A stretch of DNA of 64,000 nucleotides from Escherichia coli (GTDB lineage: Bacteria; Pseudomonadota; Gammaproteobacteria; Enterobacterales; Enterobacteriaceae), in assembly GCF_001677475.2 (NCBI RefSeq), contig NZ_CP015229.1; one strand, 5' to 3'. Every line of letters starts with the position of its first letter. The stretch's first letter is position 1. Positions 2,137 to 5,882 of the stretch are shown piece after piece. The notes beneath the pieces are model-generated. The model was not told where the DNA came from. It saw nothing but the letters and a program-made list of their open reading frames with translations, and searched no databases. Position numbers and translations under genes: made by a program.

Positions 2137-3195
2137 TCATGCGGGGGTCTTTTGACGAGCTGCCGCGTCCTGGCGGGAGTGCTCAAGCAGGTTCTGCAAA
2201 TAATGCAGCGTGACTGCAGGGACCAGCGGCGCGATAGCCGTGAGATCGTTTTTCGCCAGCAGTTGACGTACCCGGGAAGCGGATATCGGCATCTCCTGGT
2301 AACGCAGCCGCTCAATTTCAACCAGTTCGATGGGCGGTGCGGAGATAGTCGGCGTTTCCAGCCAGTAGCGCATATCCTGGTTGTACTGGGCGGTAACGCG
2401 ACAAAAGGGTTCAGTACCGACAAAGCGGTGAGTTACACCCAGCGCGGGAGCGAGGTACTGACGGAAAATCTTCAGATCAATTTCGGTGTAACAATGGTTA
2501 ATGACGCTCTGTTCTTTAATGAAGTAGCAAGGGAACGTGGCGCGGGAGATGATGTATTCGGAGCCGCGATGCACAGTCAGGCGTGGAATATCGGCGGTGC
2601 CTTTTAACACCAGATCCAGCCGGTCTTCATAGGGGAAGCGTGAAGAATCTTCTTTGACTAAAAACAGATGCAACCAGTCGCACTGTGCTGCAGCCTGTTG
2701 AATCAGATAACGGTGACCATTCGTAAAGGGATTGGCGTTCATCACAATGCAGCCAATCTTATTCCCTGGATGACGAAATTTTTTCAGCGATTCGGCATAG
2801 CGTTTCAGTCGCGTGGCGCTGTTTTCCATCAGCACCATCACGCCGGGTACACTAGTCAGCGTGGAAAAACCGCACTGGCGGAACAGCGCCTCGTATTCGG
2901 TTTTGGTATAAATAAATAGATGCGTGCTGTGCCGCTCATAGGCGAGGTTAATTAGCTCGGTGGCTAATGTCAGCGCCAGTCCTTCACCGCGAACGGATTC
3001 ACTGATAGCAACGCATTTAATAATATTTCCGGCAATTCCACCGCACGCGATAAGCTTTTCATCGCGGGTTACGGTAATAAATACTTCGACTGTGGTGTCA
3101 ACGCTCAAATCATTTTCATGCAGGAATTGGGCGATTTCCGCCATTTTTTTATTTTCTGAACGTTTTACACGGGTGAAAATATCATTGCCGAACAT
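2137..3195 (-). CDS. citC: [citrate (pro-3S)-lyase] ligase
   Basis: ORF 2137..3282 (-); start placed at internal ATG (3193..3195) giving 352 aa beginning MFGNDIFTRVKRSENKKMAEIAQF... Confidence 0.85.
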   Translation of the reverse strand: MFGNDIFTRVKRSENKKMAEIAQFLHENDLSVDTTVEVFITVTRDEKLIACGGIAGNIIKCVAISESVRGEGLALTLATELINLAYERHSTHLFIYTKTEYEALFRQCGFSTLTSVPGVMVLMENSATRLKRYAESLKKFRHPGNKIGCIVMNANPFTNGHRYLIQQAAAQCDWLHLFLVKEDSSRFPYEDRLDLVLKGTADIPRLTVHRGSEYIISRATFPCYFIKEQSVINHCYTEIDLKIFRQYLAPALGVTHRFVGTEPFCRVTAQYNQDMRYWLETPTISAPPIELVEIERLRYQEMPISASRVRQLLAKNDLTAIAPLVPAVTLHYLQNLLEHSRQDAAARQKTPA

Positions 3196-3574
3196 AATAA
3201 ATAGTATCCTGAAGGTGCATGTTGTTATCGATTTGCAACAAATGTTGTTCGATGTTGCAAACTGATAACCTTTTATTTTCACTTGGGAGAAAGGGGGGCG
3301 ATCGAGGTATATCTTTTTCTCCTTTCGCTATACATCCTAAGGAGTATTGCAGCGTGAAATTTTGATTTATTTCACATAGAGTTAGTGGTTTTTTATTTAT
3401 TTAATGGTTTTAAGTTTTTTAATTAATGTAATTACGAAATGACCCGCAGGTTTAAGTGATTTAATTGATTTAATGAATAAAATTTGCCACGATTATATTT
3501 AATATCTATGTATTTTGATTCAACATTTTAATTACATTCGTCAAAGAGGCTCGGGACAACCCGCAAGGAAAACA
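3196..3574. promoter_or_regulatory. divergent citC / dpiB control region, very AT-rich with tandem GATTTAAT motifs
   Basis: 379-bp non-coding spacer between divergently oriented citC and dpiB; AT-rich by eye, contains tgatttaattgatttaatgaat around 3456..3480. Confidence 0.4.
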
Positions 3575-5233
3575 ATGTTGCAGCTTAACGAGAATAAACA
3601 GTTTGCATTTTTCCAAAGACTGGCATTTCCGCTGCGTATCTTTTTGCTGATTCTGGTGTTCTCAATATTTGTCATTGCAGCCCTGGCGCAATATTTTACG
3701 GCCAGTTTTGAGGACTATTTAACGCTTCATGTACGCGACATGGCAATGAATCAGGCAAAAATTATTGCTTCTAATGACAGTATCATCAGCGCAGTGAAAA
3801 CGCGTGACTACAAGAGGCTGGCGACCATCGCTGACAAATTACAAAGAGATACTGATTTCGATTATGTGGTGATTGGCGATCGGCACTCGATTCGTCTTTA
3901 CCATCCTAATCCGGAGAAAATTGGTTATCCTATGCAGTTCACCAAACCGGGCGCGCTGGAGAAAGGGGAGAGCTACTTCATCACCGGGAAAGGGTCAATT
4001 GGCATGGCAATGCGTGCCAAAACGCCAATCTTTGATGACGATGGAAAAGTCATCGGCGTGGTGTCGATTGGCTACCTGGTGAGTAAAATCGATAGCTGGC
4101 GTGCTGAGTTTTTATTACCGATGGCAGGTGTGTTTGTCGTGCTGTTAGGGATTCTGATGTTGCTATCGTGGTTCCTGGCCGCGCATATCCGTCGGCAGAT
4201 GATGGGCATGGAGCCAAAGCAAATCGCACGCGTGGTCCGTCAGCAAGAGGCGCTGTTTAGTTCGGTTTATGAAGGGCTGATTGCGGTGGATCCGCACGGT
4301 TACATTACCGCCATCAATCGTAACGCAAGAAAGATGCTGGGGCTGAGTTCCCCTGGACGACAATGGTTGGGTAAACCCATTGCTGAAGTGGTCAGGCCTG
4401 CCGATTTCTTTACCGAACAGATTGATGAAAAACGTCAGGATGTGGTGGCTAACTTTAACGGCCTGAGCGTTATTGCCAATCGGGAAGCTATTCGTTCAGG
4501 TGATGATTTGCTGGGGGCCATTATCAGCTTTCGCAGTAAAGACGAAATTTCCACCCTCAATGCGCAACTGACGCAAATTAAACAATACGTCGAGAGCCTG
4601 CGCACATTGCGACACGAGCATCTCAATTGGATGTCGACGCTCAATGGTCTGTTGCAGATGAAAGAGTATGATCGCGTGCTGGCGATGGTGCAGGGGGAGT
4701 CTCAGGCCCAGCAACAGCTTATTGACAGCCTGCGCGAGGCGTTTGCCGATCGCCAGGTGGCGGGGCTGCTTTTTGGTAAAGTGCAGCGCGCCCGCGAACT
4801 GGGGCTAAAAATGATCATCGTCCCCGGCAGCCAGCTTTCGCAACTGCCGCCAGGACTGGATAGCACCGAGTTTGCCGCCATTGTTGGCAATTTACTTGAT
4901 AACGCCTTCGAAGCCAGCCTGCGTAGCGATGAAGGAAACAAGATCGTTGAATTATTCCTCAGCGATGAAGGCGATGATGTGGTGATTGAAGTCGCCGATC
5001 AGGGCTGCGGCGTTCCAGAGTCTCTACGAGACAAAATATTTGAGCAGGGTGTCAGTACGCGTGCTGACGAGCCCGGCGAACATGGCATTGGGTTGTACTT
5101 GATTGCCAGCTACGTAACGCGCTGCGGTGGTGTTATCACTCTCGAAGATAATGATCCCTGCGGTACCTTATTTTCAATCTATATTCCGAAAGTGAAACCT
5201 AATGACAGCTCCATTAACCCTATTGATCGTTGA
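3575..5233 (+). CDS. dpiB: sensor histidine kinase of the DpiBA (CitAB) two-component system
   Basis: ORF 3515..5233; start at ATG 3575 preceded by AAGGAA; 552 aa MLQLNENKQFAFFQRLAFPL... with two TM segments and an HATPase C-terminus. Confidence 0.9.
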   Translation: MLQLNENKQFAFFQRLAFPLRIFLLILVFSIFVIAALAQYFTASFEDYLTLHVRDMAMNQAKIIASNDSIISAVKTRDYKRLATIADKLQRDTDFDYVVIGDRHSIRLYHPNPEKIGYPMQFTKPGALEKGESYFITGKGSIGMAMRAKTPIFDDDGKVIGVVSIGYLVSKIDSWRAEFLLPMAGVFVVLLGILMLLSWFLAAHIRRQMMGMEPKQIARVVRQQEALFSSVYEGLIAVDPHGYITAINRNARKMLGLSSPGRQWLGKPIAEVVRPADFFTEQIDEKRQDVVANFNGLSVIANREAIRSGDDLLGAIISFRSKDEISTLNAQLTQIKQYVESLRTLRHEHLNWMSTLNGLLQMKEYDRVLAMVQGESQAQQQLIDSLREAFADRQVAGLLFGKVQRARELGLKMIIVPGSQLSQLPPGLDSTEFAAIVGNLLDNAFEASLRSDEGNKIVELFLSDEGDDVVIEVADQGCGVPESLRDKIFEQGVSTRADEPGEHGIGLYLIASYVTRCGGVITLEDNDPCGTLFSIYIPKVKPNDSSINPIDR

Positions 5234-5882
5234 GGACGAAACGCCGCTGGCAGAGATGCATGCGGAATATATTCGTCACATTCCCGGATTCAGTCAGATA
5301 TTACTGGCGGGAAACCTGGCGCAGGCCCGAATGATGATCGAGCGTTTTAAGCCGGGGCTAATCTTGCTCGATAACTATCTTCCTGACGGTAGAGGGATTA
5401 ATTTACTGCATGAACTGGTGCAGGCGCATTTTCCCGGCGACGTGGTGTTTACCACTGCAGCCAGCGATATGGAAACGGTGTCTGAAGCCGTACGTTGTGG
5501 TGTATTTGATTATCTCATTAAGCCCATTGCCTATGAGCGGCTGGGGCAAACGCTAACCCGTTTCCGCCAGCGTAAACATATGCTGGAAAGTATTGATAGC
5601 GCCAGCCAGAAGCAAATTGATGAGATGTTTAATGCCTATGCTCGCGGTGAACCTAAAGACGAACTGCCGACCGGCATTGACCCCTTGACGCTAAACGCGG
5701 TGCGAAAACTGTTTAAAGAGCCTGGTGTGCAACATACGGCAGAAACGGTGGCGCAGGCACTGACCATCAGCCGCACCACTGCCAGGCGTTATCTTGAATA
5801 TTGCGCCAGCCGCCATCTGATTATTGCTGAAATTGTTCACGGCAAAGTTGGCAGACCGCAACGCATATACCACAGTGGGTGA
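5202..5882 (+). CDS. dpiA: response regulator DpiA (CitB)
   Basis: 226-aa ORF MTAPLTLLIVEDETPLAEMHAEYI... with receiver-domain motifs; overlaps the dpiB 3' end by 32 nt. Confidence 0.9.
   Translation: MTAPLTLLIVEDETPLAEMHAEYIRHIPGFSQILLAGNLAQARMMIERFKPGLILLDNYLPDGRGINLLHELVQAHFPGDVVFTTAASDMETVSEAVRCGVFDYLIKPIAYERLGQTLTRFRQRKHMLESIDSASQKQIDEMFNAYARGEPKDELPTGIDPLTLNAVRKLFKEPGVQHTAETVAQALTISRTTARRYLEYCASRHLIIAEIVHGKVGRPQRIYHSG

Follow-up and report, generated by a model that had tools for sequence, protein, structure and literature searches.

A repeat-based candidate DpiA (CitB) operator in the divergent citC–dpiB control region of Escherichia coli

Introduction

Between the citrate-lyase operon of Escherichia coli and the genes of its two-component regulator lies a spacer that an earlier note had described as extremely A+T-rich and as carrying tandem TTAAT/GATTTAAT repeats, read there as plausible operator half-sites or nucleoid-protein binding regions. 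Which protein, if any, do these repeats serve? The window analyzed here, a 64-kb stretch of DNA, is E. coli chromosome, and comparison with related loci indicates, with a probability of about 80%, that the repeats are part of the DpiA (CitB) operator in a bidirectional citCDEFXGT–dpiBA control region (Table 1).

Results

Limits and conservation of the intergenic region

The flanking genes named earlier, citC and dpiB, were borne out by RefSeq annotation and NCBIfam equivalog models; CitC matches TIGR00124 with E=9e-179 and DpiA matches NF007467 with E=2e-156, the latter protein also containing a receiver domain and the Pfam domain PF20714 (“DpiA-like helix-turn-helix”). The locus is matched in 5419 of 5426 complete E. 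coli genomes, with annotated citC and dpiB, and K-12 is 98% identical to the window over 3100–3700. The left boundary had been set at 3283 from the longest citC ORF, which begins with a GTG at 3282 and encodes 381 amino acids. RefSeq, by annotation of identical or near-identical records, places citC at 2137..3195 (352 amino acids, ATG at 3195), the NCBIfam citrate-lyase-ligase model begins at residue 7 of the 352-residue protein, and of 64 distinct orthologous sequences, 45 carry an in-frame stop no more than 30 codons upstream of the ATG. Since citC starts at this ATG, the boundary at 3283 is wrong and the true spacer measures 379 bp. The divergent layout, with an A+T-rich spacer of 324–556 bp, is kept in 65 species-level genomes, and these 65 spacers (64 distinct sequences) formed the comparative set.

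Table 1. Features of the citC–dpiB region, in window coordinates.
Feature	Position	Strand	Basis
citC, [citrate (pro-3S)-lyase] ligase; first gene of citCDEFXGT	2137..3195	-	RefSeq, NCBIfam TIGR00124
citC–dpiB divergent intergenic control region, 379 bp	3196..3574		Annotation, comparison
Inverted repeat GTTATCGATTTGCAACA / TGTTGCAAACTGATAAC in predicted citC leader	3224..3269	-	17 nt, 88% complementary
Conserved block TGATAACcTTTTaTTTTCA	3263..3281		Columns without variation in alignment A1; 65-sequence identity deciles of 8
Stem GGAGAAA/TTTCTCC with large loop, a few bases after predicted citC start	3286..3322	-	Complementary arms; modest Z-scores
Predicted citC transcription start, about ±2 bp	3327..3327	-	Inferred
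NarL/NarP 7-2-7-like site TACATCC-TA-AGGAGTA over predicted citC -10	3331..3346		Conservation, position, database
Predicted citC -10 hexamer TAGGAT (-12..-7)	3334..3339	-	Fixed distance from CRP/FNR-type site
Hybrid CRP/FNR-family site TTTGA-TTTATT-TCACA centred at 3368.5, one half CRP-type and the other FNR-type	3361..3376		Consensus, conservation
M0, partial extra module (TGGTTTTTTATTTATTTAA)	3386..3404	+	Matrix score 11.3 bits
M1, TGGTTTTAAGTTTTTTAATTAATGTAAT, proposed DpiA~P operator	3405..3432	+	Consensus, matrix, conservation
M2, CAGGTTTAAGTGATTTAATTGATTTAAT, second proposed DpiA~P operator	3447..3474	+	Recurrence at +42, matrix, conservation
Three 9-bp units (TTTAAGTGA TTTAATTGA TTTAATGAA); number varies among E. 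coli strains	3451..3477	+	Tandem Repeats Finder
Conserved block AAATTTGCCACGAT (consensus AATCTGTAACGATC), -33..-20 of dpiB start	3480..3493		Alignment conservation
dpiBA promoter: -10 TAATAT (3500-3505), database transcription start about 3513	3500..3513	+	Reg-Seq table
Conserved block AACA-N6-TTACA, +9..+25 of dpiB transcript	3521..3537		AACA and TTACA invariant in A1
Predicted ChiX (RybC/SroB) sRNA pairing site in dpiB 5' UTR (CGTCAAAGAGG)	3538..3549	+	Predicted duplex
dpiB (citA), citrate sensor kinase	3575..5233	+	RefSeq; NCBIfam NF011627 equivalog, 1227 bits
dpiA (citB), response regulator with HTH_64 DNA-binding domain; proposed reader of M1 and M2	5202..5882	+	NCBIfam NF007467

A phased 9-bp repeat array in the most A+T-rich DNA of the window

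The extreme base composition was confirmed: GC content is 31.5% over 3283–3574 and 23.8% in the core (3340–3545), against 50.4% for the whole window, and the lowest-GC 200-bp windows of the entire 64 kb all fall in the citC–dpiB spacer. It is in this most A+T-rich part that TGATTTAAT occurs twice in tandem (3457–3474). The repeat quoted in the earlier note is likewise real, the string tgatttaattgatttaatgaat being present at 3457–3478, and Tandem Repeats Finder reported the tandem at 3451–3474 with a period of 9, 2.7 copies and the consensus TTTAATTGA. By itself the exact two-copy tandem barely exceeds chance; a period-9 self-match run of 9 was reached by 0.3–0.8% of dinucleotide shuffles, and an equally long run at any period from 5 to 15 by 6–10%. 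The wider phased array of TTTAA far exceeds chance. Eight copies of TTTAA lie on the + strand of the spacer and none on the - strand, two triplets show exact 9-bp spacing (3400/3409/3418 and 3451/3460/3469), and such an arrangement was reproduced by none of 5000 shuffles. A 51-bp repeat register was rejected as a by-product of the 9-bp sub-period, the best cross-species register being 42 bp.

Two 28-bp modules conserved at a fixed spacing

From the 65-spacer comparison a 28-bp module consensus was obtained, TGGTTTTWAkTTkTTTAATTrATkTAAT, which is A+T-rich, is made of 9-bp TTTAA(T/G)nnn units, and is found twice in the spacer in direct-repeat orientation, 42 bp or four helical turns apart. The first occurrence, M1, has no mismatches to the consensus and a matrix score of 35.5 bits, and no match other than that of M1 was found in the 64 kb at up to 3 mismatches. 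Its centre lies at -91.5 from the predicted citC start and at -94.5 from the dpiB start, and its core TAATGGTTTTWA is present at up to 1 mismatch in 64 of the 65 spacers, with identity deciles of 9. M2 (26.7 bits) includes the TGATTTAAT tandem as its 3' two-thirds, which is the invariant part, and TTAATTGATTTAA within it is invariant in alignment A1; M2 is centred about -52.5 from the dpiB start and spans about -66 to -39. The 28-mer repeats at exactly +42 bp, with 64–81% identity, in five clades (Escherichia, Citrobacter/Salmonella, the Buttiauxella group, Edwardsiella and Providencia), and M1 is present with no M2 at +42 in Yersinia, Pragia and Leminorella. The partial module M0 is weak in E. 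coli, and Citrobacter and Salmonella loci score 16–29.7 bits at the matching -18 bp position.

Phylogenetic footprinting of the spacer, advised in the earlier note, showed little or no change in the repeat motif between Escherichia and Buttiauxella, beside adjacent bases that vary; the refuting case named in that note, repeats neither conserved nor matched to a regulator, was not borne out. The conserved blocks of the spacer alignments fall on M1, M2 and the CRP/FNR-type site, amid variable flanking bases. The consensus and a weight matrix built from the modules matched the window at module sites only. Over approximately 580 kb of related loci, every match of at least 14 bits lies upstream of a dpiB homologue and on the strand of that gene, and such upstream matches also occur in Yersinia, Pragia, Leminorella, Paludibacterium and Orbaceae, none of which contributed to the matrix. 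A scan for regulator motifs, also advised, gave a divided outcome, as this matrix follows dpiBA and consensus scans for NarL, CRP, FNR, IHF, ArcA, Fis and DnaA returned counts indistinguishable from chance in 64 kb, the CRP, FNR, NarL and ArcA matches being individually no better than chance. Assignments of CRP, FNR, NarL and ArcA type are made from conservation and position only.

DpiA as the probable reader of the modules

The modules lie in an A+T-rich target between citC and CitA/CitB-type genes and are conserved together with the regulator, as expected of a DpiA operator, and EcoCyc places DpiA sites in the citC–dpiB spacer (EcoCyc/RegulonDB, curated from Yamamoto et al. 2008/2009). Published functional evidence comes from Citrobacter rodentium: a PcitC reporter functions in E. 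coli without C. rodentium dpiAB, and a truncation of “DpiA operator sites,” labelled by alignment to the EcoCyc E. coli sites, abolishes citrate induction (n=3). GFP expression induced by citrate/anaerobiosis is driven by the 365 bp preceding the GTG codon. The truncation primer maps to window 3361–3388, and what it removes is the homologue of ~3389 to the dpiB end, a segment extending beyond M1 and M2. The conserved motif, its repetition at +42 bp, the co-occurrence with dpiBA in held-out lineages and this truncation together support the operator proposed earlier. The term half-sites in that proposal is less apt, since the repeats are 9-bp direct repeats within a longer module and not palindromic halves.

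The citC side

Against the CRP consensus TGTGA-N6-TCACA the site at 3361–3376 scores 9/10 (four 1-mismatch matches in the window, 1.9 expected), and against the FNR consensus TTGAT-N4-ATCAA it scores 8/10 (TTGAT-TTAT-TTCAC; 46 2-mismatch matches in the window, 35 expected). Every one of the 65 spacers contains TTGA-N5-TTCA, and in 64 its distance to the M1 core is exactly 40 bp; distant genera retain the TCACA-side half and show TTGA or TTGAC in the other half. With GTGA on one half and TCAA on the other, the protein that would use this hybrid site appears ambiguous between CRP and FNR; databases give both as citC regulators, and list citCDEFXG as regulated by ArcA, CRP, DpiA, FNR and NarL. 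A TAnnAT hexamer stands at a fixed distance from the site in 54 of 64 distinct spacers (in Providencia it is TAATAT, shifted by one base). The citC start is predicted at 3327 because this position lies 7 bp past the hexamer, at a distance of 41.5 bp from the middle of the CRP/FNR-type site, and relative to this predicted start the layout is that of a class II promoter, with the activator site centred at -41.5 and the -10 at -12 to -7. The putative NarL/NarP site consists of one perfect heptamer (TACTCCT, - strand) and a second with two mismatches to TACYYMT. Matches of such quality are common by chance in the window, and the block ATCnTAAGGAGTATT is invariant in A1 across genera; the assignment is suggested by conservation and placement, together with a database entry naming NarL as a citC regulator. 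A sigma70/terminator scan of the spacer found no promoter-like match, as expected of activator-dependent promoters.

In the predicted citC leader, the inverted repeat folds as a hairpin in E. coli (leader z=-3.0), and RNAalifold on 19 sequences gave no consensus structure across genera; per-sequence folds had modest z-scores, equal on both strands. At the position of the stem closest to the predicted start, other complementary arms occur in Salmonella (GTCAGAG/CTCTGAC) and Citrobacter amalonaticus (TCCGGGGAAAA/TTTTCCCCGGA). The stem closest to the predicted start may belong to either strand, and has been published as the predicted terminator of a claimed + strand gene, nog1 (PMC4683798). An Rfam scan returned only a sub-threshold eukaryotic scaRNA match (17.6 bits, gathering score 65).

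The dpiB side

The Reg-Seq supplementary table gives the dpiBA transcription start as 652172 (forward), and its 160-bp construct corresponds to window 3398–3557; the last 45 nt of the construct were taken as +1 to +45, a hand mapping good to a few bp. The sRNA ChiX was located in K-12 by Rfam RF00368. Its seed is predicted to form a 12-bp duplex with the dpiB 5' UTR at -19.2 kcal/mol, in the top 0.2% of 2556 windows; this seed-only prediction was informative, whereas prediction with full-length ChiX was not. Regulation of dpiBA by RybC is published (Mandin & Gottesman 2009).

Strain variation in the operator

The number of TTTAATTGA units varies among natural E. coli, with two in strain 2-331, three in most strains, and four in O145 RM9872 and L26. 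These head-to-tail units of differing count constitute a variable-number tandem repeat, and this 2/3/4-unit variation is the sole fresh observation of the present work. The 85-bp repeat stretch is nonetheless kept at no less than 95% identity in 5370 of 5426 E. coli genomes. K-12 carries G>A at 3407, within the otherwise invariant TGG of M1.

Discussion

Competing explanations

One unlikely alternative assigns M2, with its tandem, mainly to the paralogue DcuR in a DcuSR-to-citAB cascade, leaving only M1 to DpiA. Among paralogues, DcuR is nearest to DpiA (second-best NCBIfam match, E=2e-39), and M2 sits at an activator distance from the dpiB start. A DcuR site reportedly precedes citAB, and DcuR~P is said to bind the citAB promoter region; on this account M2 could be common to, or used by, DcuR. 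However, M1 and M2 share the same motif, as their identity at +42 bp shows, so one protein probably reads both, and the motif follows dpiBA homologues into distant lineages. Moreover, searches with the module matrix (at least 4 bits), the consensus and the conserved blocks found nothing in the DcuR-controlled regions upstream of K-12 dcuB-dcuR and frdA. The same searches lend no support to M1/M2 as a general CitB-family motif common to DcuR targets.

It is improbable that the repeats are generic A+T-rich DNA that recruits H-NS, IHF or Fis, or confers curvature, without a dedicated regulator. Such a role would fit the lowest-GC stretch of the window, an RpoS-holoenzyme SELEX peak given for the citC/dpiB spacer, and three IHF-like one-mismatch matches in the spacer, but none of these matches falls on M1 or M2. 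Invariant, base-specific runs stand beside freely varying bases, the 40- and 42-bp intervals are free of indels in several families, TTTAA is confined to one strand, and the period is 9 bp rather than the ~10.5-bp phasing required for intrinsic curvature. The nucleoid-protein half of the earlier suggestion is thus not supported as an account of the repeats, with an additional nucleoid layer possible.

Very improbable is a region controlled chiefly by ArcA, in which strings of the TTAATTAA type are ArcA~P boxes. ArcA direct repeats have an 11-bp period, which differs from the 9-bp period of M1 and M2, and the conserved core TGGTTTTWA has no ArcA counterpart. In favour of ArcA, TTTTAATTAA at 3417–3426 is one mismatch from the 10-bp ArcA box, and databases give ArcA as a citC regulator; matches of such quality are, however, frequent. 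The conserved block at 3521–3537 reads TGTAA-N6-TGTTG on the - strand (3521–3536), two mismatches from TGTTA-N6-TGTTA and similar to ArcA direct repeats. ArcA may use this block, a tentative assignment.

That the tandem arose recently by slippage, or is low-complexity sequence repeated by chance, and serves no function is hardly credible and is already contradicted by the conservation data: two-copy tandems arise at some period in 6–10% of shuffles and unit number differs among strains, but the three-unit arrangement and TTAATTGATTTAA are conserved across genera, the 85-bp stretch is kept in nearly all E. coli genomes, and shuffling never yielded the phased array.

A model for DpiA action

Under the preferred assignment to DpiA, citrate and anaerobiosis would lead DpiB to phosphorylate DpiA, and DpiA~P would occupy both M1 and M2 from the same face of the helix. 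Toward dpiBA, M2, centred near -52 and abutting the -35 region, could mediate positive autoregulation. Toward citC, M1 is rigidly placed 40 bp from the CRP/FNR-type site, itself at -41.5 of a promoter with a TAnnAT -10, and this class II geometry suggests that DpiA~P would serve as upstream co-activator of a CRP- and/or FNR-dependent promoter. The NarL-type 7-2-7 site over the predicted citC -10 may account for nitrate repression. Weighing against the DpiA assignment are the lack of an M2 at +42 in Yersinia, Pragia and Leminorella, the K-12 change in the TGG of M1, and the size of the C. rodentium truncation, which takes in more than the two modules.

A further proposal, speculative and in our estimate unlikely, is that a slippage-prone 9-bp array in the DpiA operator, beside the dpiB -35, might generate copy variants that shift promoter geometry by 9 bp per step, heritably tuning dpiBA autoregulation, citrate-lyase expression and, via DpiA, beta-lactam-triggered SOS; more broadly, 9-bp-phased TTTAAT in 28-bp modules 42 bp apart would be an as yet undescribed recognition code of HTH_64 (DpiA-like) response regulators.

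Relation to known systems

The element is real and already documented: the repeats very probably represent the DpiA/CitB operator known from this previously described control region. Significance beyond annotation is accordingly small, regulation of citC–dpiBA by DpiA/CitB, CRP, FNR, NarL, ArcA and ChiX being on record. What is added is a comparative map at base resolution (a pair of 28-bp modules with a 42-bp offset, a 40-bp class II link and a likely citC start), which could steer mutagenesis or citrate-biosensor design on the citC–dpiBA promoter. Descriptions of the 28-bp module, its recurrence at 42 bp, the 9-bp sub-periodicity and the fixed 40-bp CRP/FNR link were not found in the accessible texts, and a full-text literature search with the operator strings returned unrelated papers only.

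The closest known system is the set of K-12 DpiA (CitB) sites in EcoCyc/RegulonDB, which shares locus, flanking genes and regulator, with 98% identical sequence and no substantive difference; the likeness to M1 and M2 is drawn at the level of the locus. Those EcoCyc sites guided the operator deletion made by others, which maps to the M0–M2 side of the spacer. In Klebsiella pneumoniae, the CitB targets between citC and citS are likewise A+T-rich, are bound by an orthologous-type regulator and lie in a divergent region with citC (Meyer, Dimroth & Bott 1997), and CRP sites are present there too (Meyer et al. 2001). The Klebsiella arrangement differs in that citS-oadGAB-citAB faces citC, with the sensor genes at the operon end, and the likeness is one of regulator type, base composition and setting. 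The DcuR operator at dcuB/frdA belongs to the same CitB regulator family, with a related DNA-binding domain, but matrix and consensus searches returned no counterpart of the module upstream of K-12 dcuB-dcuR and frdA. The citC promoter resembles class II CRP- or FNR-dependent promoters with an upstream co-activator in having a 16-bp CRP/FNR-family site centred 41.5 bp from the predicted start, a conserved -10 without a recognisable -35, and a second, proposed activator site at a fixed helical distance upstream; it differs in the hybrid make-up of its CRP/FNR-type site.

Locus and spacer boundaries

The interval 3100–3700 is matched by 5419 of 5426 complete E. coli genomes, with 100% identity to strain CFSAN018748, and the genes annotated beneath the match are citC, the first gene of the citrate-lyase operon, and dpiB, encoding the citrate sensor kinase; about 46 E. 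coli records span <80% of the interval. CitC, DpiB, and the response regulator DpiA each gave an equivalog-level match in NCBIfam, and DpiA carries the Pfam "DpiA-like helix-turn-helix" domain. The left spacer boundary in the earlier note, 3283, is a longest-ORF artifact (GTG at 3282), and the GTG extension is not conserved as coding sequence. An in-frame stop lies at most 30 codons upstream of the citC ATG in 45 of 64 distinct orthologous sequences, and the citrate-lyase-ligase family model starts at residue 7 of the short (352-aa) CitC, both favoring the short protein and therefore a 379-bp spacer. The 101-aa GTG ORF antisense to the citC 5′ end corresponds to the published EHEC overlapping gene nog1 (PMC4683798), described on the basis of the long citC annotation (GTG, 381-aa); with the citC ATG at 3195, nog1 is only partly embedded in citC, its final 70 nt lying in the spacer.

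Features of the citC–dpiB spacer and its flanks (window coordinates)
Feature	Position	Remarks
citC	2137–3195	minus strand; RefSeq, 352 aa, ATG start
nog1 ORF	2960–3265	plus strand
Spacer	3196–3574	379 bp
Inverted repeat GTTATCGATTTGCAACA/TGTTGCAAACTGATAAC and adjoining block	3224–3281	predicted citC leader
TGATAACcTTTTaTTTTCA	3263–3281	conserved block
Stem with large A-rich loop	3286–3322	
citC start	3327	predicted
NarL/NarP-like site	3331–3346	over predicted −10
ACATCcTAAGGAGTATT	3332–3348	conserved block
citC −10 hexamer TAGGAT	3339–3334	minus strand; predicted
CRP/FNR-type site, TTTGATTTATTTCACA	3361–3376	conserved block
Around TTTAATGGTTTTAAGTTTTTTAATTA	3399–3426	conserved block
M1	3405–3432	28-bp module
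M2	3447–3474	28-bp module; 3′ part is the noted tandem, TGATTTAAT twice
TTAATTGATTTAA	3451–3474	conserved block; invariant among 16 sequences
AAATTTGCCACGAT	3480–3493	conserved block
dpiB −10, TAATAT	about 3500–3505	predicted
dpiB transcription start	~3513	predicted
AACA-N6-TTACA	3521–3537	conserved block; +9 to +25 of dpiB transcript; invariant across genera
ChiX seed complement CGTCAAAGAGG	3538–3549	12 nt, perfect; dpiB 5′ UTR
dpiB	from 3575	RefSeq

A repeated 28-bp module

The repeat string first quoted was located at 3457–3478, TRF returned a period-9 array at 3451–3474, and the reported AT-richness holds, the core 3340–3545 having 23.8% GC versus 50.4% for the window and containing the 200-bp stretches of lowest GC in all 64 kb. 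The two-copy tandem alone is weak, as 6–10% of dinucleotide shuffles match its length at some period of 5–15. TTTAA occurs eight times on the plus strand and never on the minus strand, forming two triplets with exact 9-bp spacing (3400/3409/3418 and 3451/3460/3469), a phased array seen in none of 5000 shuffles.

Scanning species-representative genomes for DpiB yielded 80 loci, in 65 of which citC and dpiB are divergent neighbors separated by an AT-rich spacer of 324 to 556 bp (Escherichia, Citrobacter, Salmonella, Buttiauxella, Atlantibacter, Pluralibacter, Edwardsiella, Yersinia, Providencia, Moellerella, Leminorella, and Pragia). Alignments of 16 of these sequences and of all 65 both displayed sharp conserved blocks alternating with variable sequence. 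The noted motif ranks among the best-conserved strings of the spacer; the lack of conservation that the earlier note named as its refutation was not observed. For the block separating M2 from the dpiB −10, AAATTTGCCACGAT here and AATCTGTAACGATC in other genera, no regulator was matched.

Spacers were anchored on the core TAATGGTTTTWA, present in 64 of 65 with at most one mismatch. A second copy of the 28-mer, which begins at TGG, stands at exactly +42 bp with 64 to 81% identity in five clades and is missing in Yersinia and Pragia/Leminorella; the consensus is TGGTTTTWAkTTkTTTAATTrATkTAAT, and the two copies are designated M1 and M2. A 51-bp register from the repeat search proved to be the 42-bp register displaced by one 9-bp unit. 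The consensus has no other match in the 64-kb window at up to three mismatches. M1 and M2 sequences from 37 spacers were combined into a weight matrix, which scored the copies here at 35.5 bits (M1) and 26.7 bits (M2), the sole further match in the window being M0, a weak overlapping partial copy at 3386. Across ~580 kb of related loci, all matches of at least 14 bits lie upstream of a dpiB homolog and on its strand, a pattern also valid in lineages outside the matrix (Yersinia, Pragia, Leminorella) and at loci whose dpiB homolog has no neighboring citC (Paludibacterium, Frischella, Gilliamella). The motif thus accompanies the two-component genes, as expected of an autoregulatory operator. Upstream of distant DpiB homologs (~40% identity; a Paludibacterium MAG and Orbaceae) the module reads GyGGTTTTTATGnTnTTAAT, at ~2740–2840 in compared locus L062 and ~2700–2800 in L069, L071, and L074, with citC at a distance of >2 kb; the Orbaceae module is preceded, ~10 bp upstream, by a TGTGA-N6-TCA site, an arrangement other than that found here.

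Predicted promoter geometry on the citC side

The CRP/FNR-family site matches TGTGA-N6-TCACA at 9 of 10 positions and TTGAT-N4-ATCAA at 8 of 10. Across genera one half is GTGA-like and the other TCAA-like, so sequence does not tell which protein binds. In 64 of 65 spacers this site and the M1 core are 40 bp apart, despite variable intervening bases. If the site is centered at −41.5, citC would start at 3327 and the −12 to −7 hexamer would be TAGGAT; a TAnnAT hexamer occupies the corresponding position in 54 of 64 distinct spacers. The predicted layout matches class II promoters that depend on CRP or FNR. The invariant block TACATCC-TA-AGGAGTA over the predicted −10 resembles a 7-2-7 site for NarL/NarP, one heptamer being perfect. 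Counts of CRP, FNR, and NarL consensus matches were not significant in the 64-kb window; these assignments rest on conservation, position, and RegulonDB/EcoCyc-derived statements, which name ArcA, CRP, DpiA, FNR, and NarL as regulators of citCDEFXG, the same list that the earlier note proposed to check.

Within the predicted citC leader, the inverted repeat adjoins an invariant GATAAC-TTTT-TTTTCA; the hairpin is stable in E. coli, its structure is not conserved, and ATGTTG is present three times. A few bases past the predicted start, the stem with the A-rich loop persists in Escherichia, Salmonella, and several Citrobacter through differing complementary arms, with modest statistics that do not settle the strand.

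The dpiB side

The araB leader is 27 nt, in line with reading the final 45 nt of a Reg-Seq construct as +1 to +45. In the Reg-Seq supplementary table the araAB entry stops 18 nt into araB, and dpiBA is given a start at 652172 with a 160-bp construct corresponding to 3398–3557, which under the +45 reading places the dpiB start near 3513. Relative to that position M2 spans approximately −66 to −39 and the noted tandem −56 to −39, adjoining the −35 region, while the M1 center falls at about −94 (−91.5 from the predicted citC start). Reversed, the AACA-N6-TTACA block reads TGTAA-N6-TGTTG, an ArcA-direct-repeat-like sequence with two mismatches. Pairing with the ChiX (RybC) sRNA seed is predicted at −19.2 kcal/mol, a value ranking within the best 0.2% of windows, and the site agrees with the reported regulation of dpiBA by RybC/ChiX. 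This site is kept in part of Escherichia only, being changed in Escherichia sp. MOD1, E. whittamii, and E. albertii and absent from Citrobacter and Salmonella in the 16-sequence alignment.

Variation within E. coli

The segment 3396–3480 is carried at ≥95% identity by 5370 of 5426 genomes, 635 being identical. Copy number of the 9-bp unit TTTAATTGA (3451–3477) varies: most strains have three (near-perfect in EC974), strain 2-331 exactly one fewer, and O145 RM9872 and the chicken isolate L26 four. The four-unit BLAST signature (104-bp span in two pieces) appeared in nine of the ten best-scoring matches, and ~18 of roughly 5370 genomes differ from the three-unit form. K-12 MG1655 and 2-331 carry G>A at 3407, within the TGG core of M1, a position conserved in nearly all 65 spacers. 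In the BL21(DE3) assembly NZ_CP081489.1 (~2945–3001; window ~3499) the spacer is interrupted between M2 and the dpiB −10, and dpiB is fused to a truncated tuf fragment with secE-nusG-rplKAJ, reflecting either a rearrangement or an assembly artifact.

Interpretation and comparison with known systems

M1 and M2, the noted motif included, most likely serve as the operator for DpiA~P in a bidirectional control region (probability about 0.8). M2 would mediate positive autoregulation of dpiBA. On the citC side, M1, perhaps together with M2, would act from a fixed position on the helix as a co-activator site for a class II promoter of the CRP/FNR type. The chief competing reading has M2 shared with, or used by, DcuR; Scheu et al. 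in 2012 reportedly placed a DcuR site in front of citAB. No copy of the module motif occurs upstream of dcuB or frdA, which counts against a common DcuR/DpiA motif but not against cross-binding. Little supports generic nucleoid-protein binding at the repeats, ArcA boxes, or a slippage product lacking function. The accessible literature yielded no description of the module organization, of the 42-bp and 40-bp spacing constraints, or of the predicted citC start; these refine the picture and leave it unchanged, unit-number variation among E. coli strains being the sole mildly fresh point.

In a biosensor study from 2025, built on the cloned dpiAB-PcitC region of C. rodentium, the PcitC reporter is citrate-responsive anaerobically, inhibited by nitrate, and functional in E. 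coli even without its own dpiAB. A truncated version lacking the segment labeled "DpiA operator sites" lost its citrate response. The truncation primer maps to the homolog of 3361–3388, so the inactive construct retains the −10 and both the NarL-like and CRP/FNR-type sites but drops M0, M1, M2, and all beyond. In EHEC, 365 bp upstream of the GTG codon gave an approximately two-fold GFP signal induced by citrate/anaerobiosis. SELEX and footprint studies of E. coli CitB (DpiA) are cited in other papers. The repeat element is real and functional-looking, and belongs to an already known, documented operator region of a documented system. In K. pneumoniae, A+T-rich targets bound by CitB lie in the control region of citC/citS, according to the title of Meyer, Dimroth & Bott 1997, and CRP sites have been reported from the same region.
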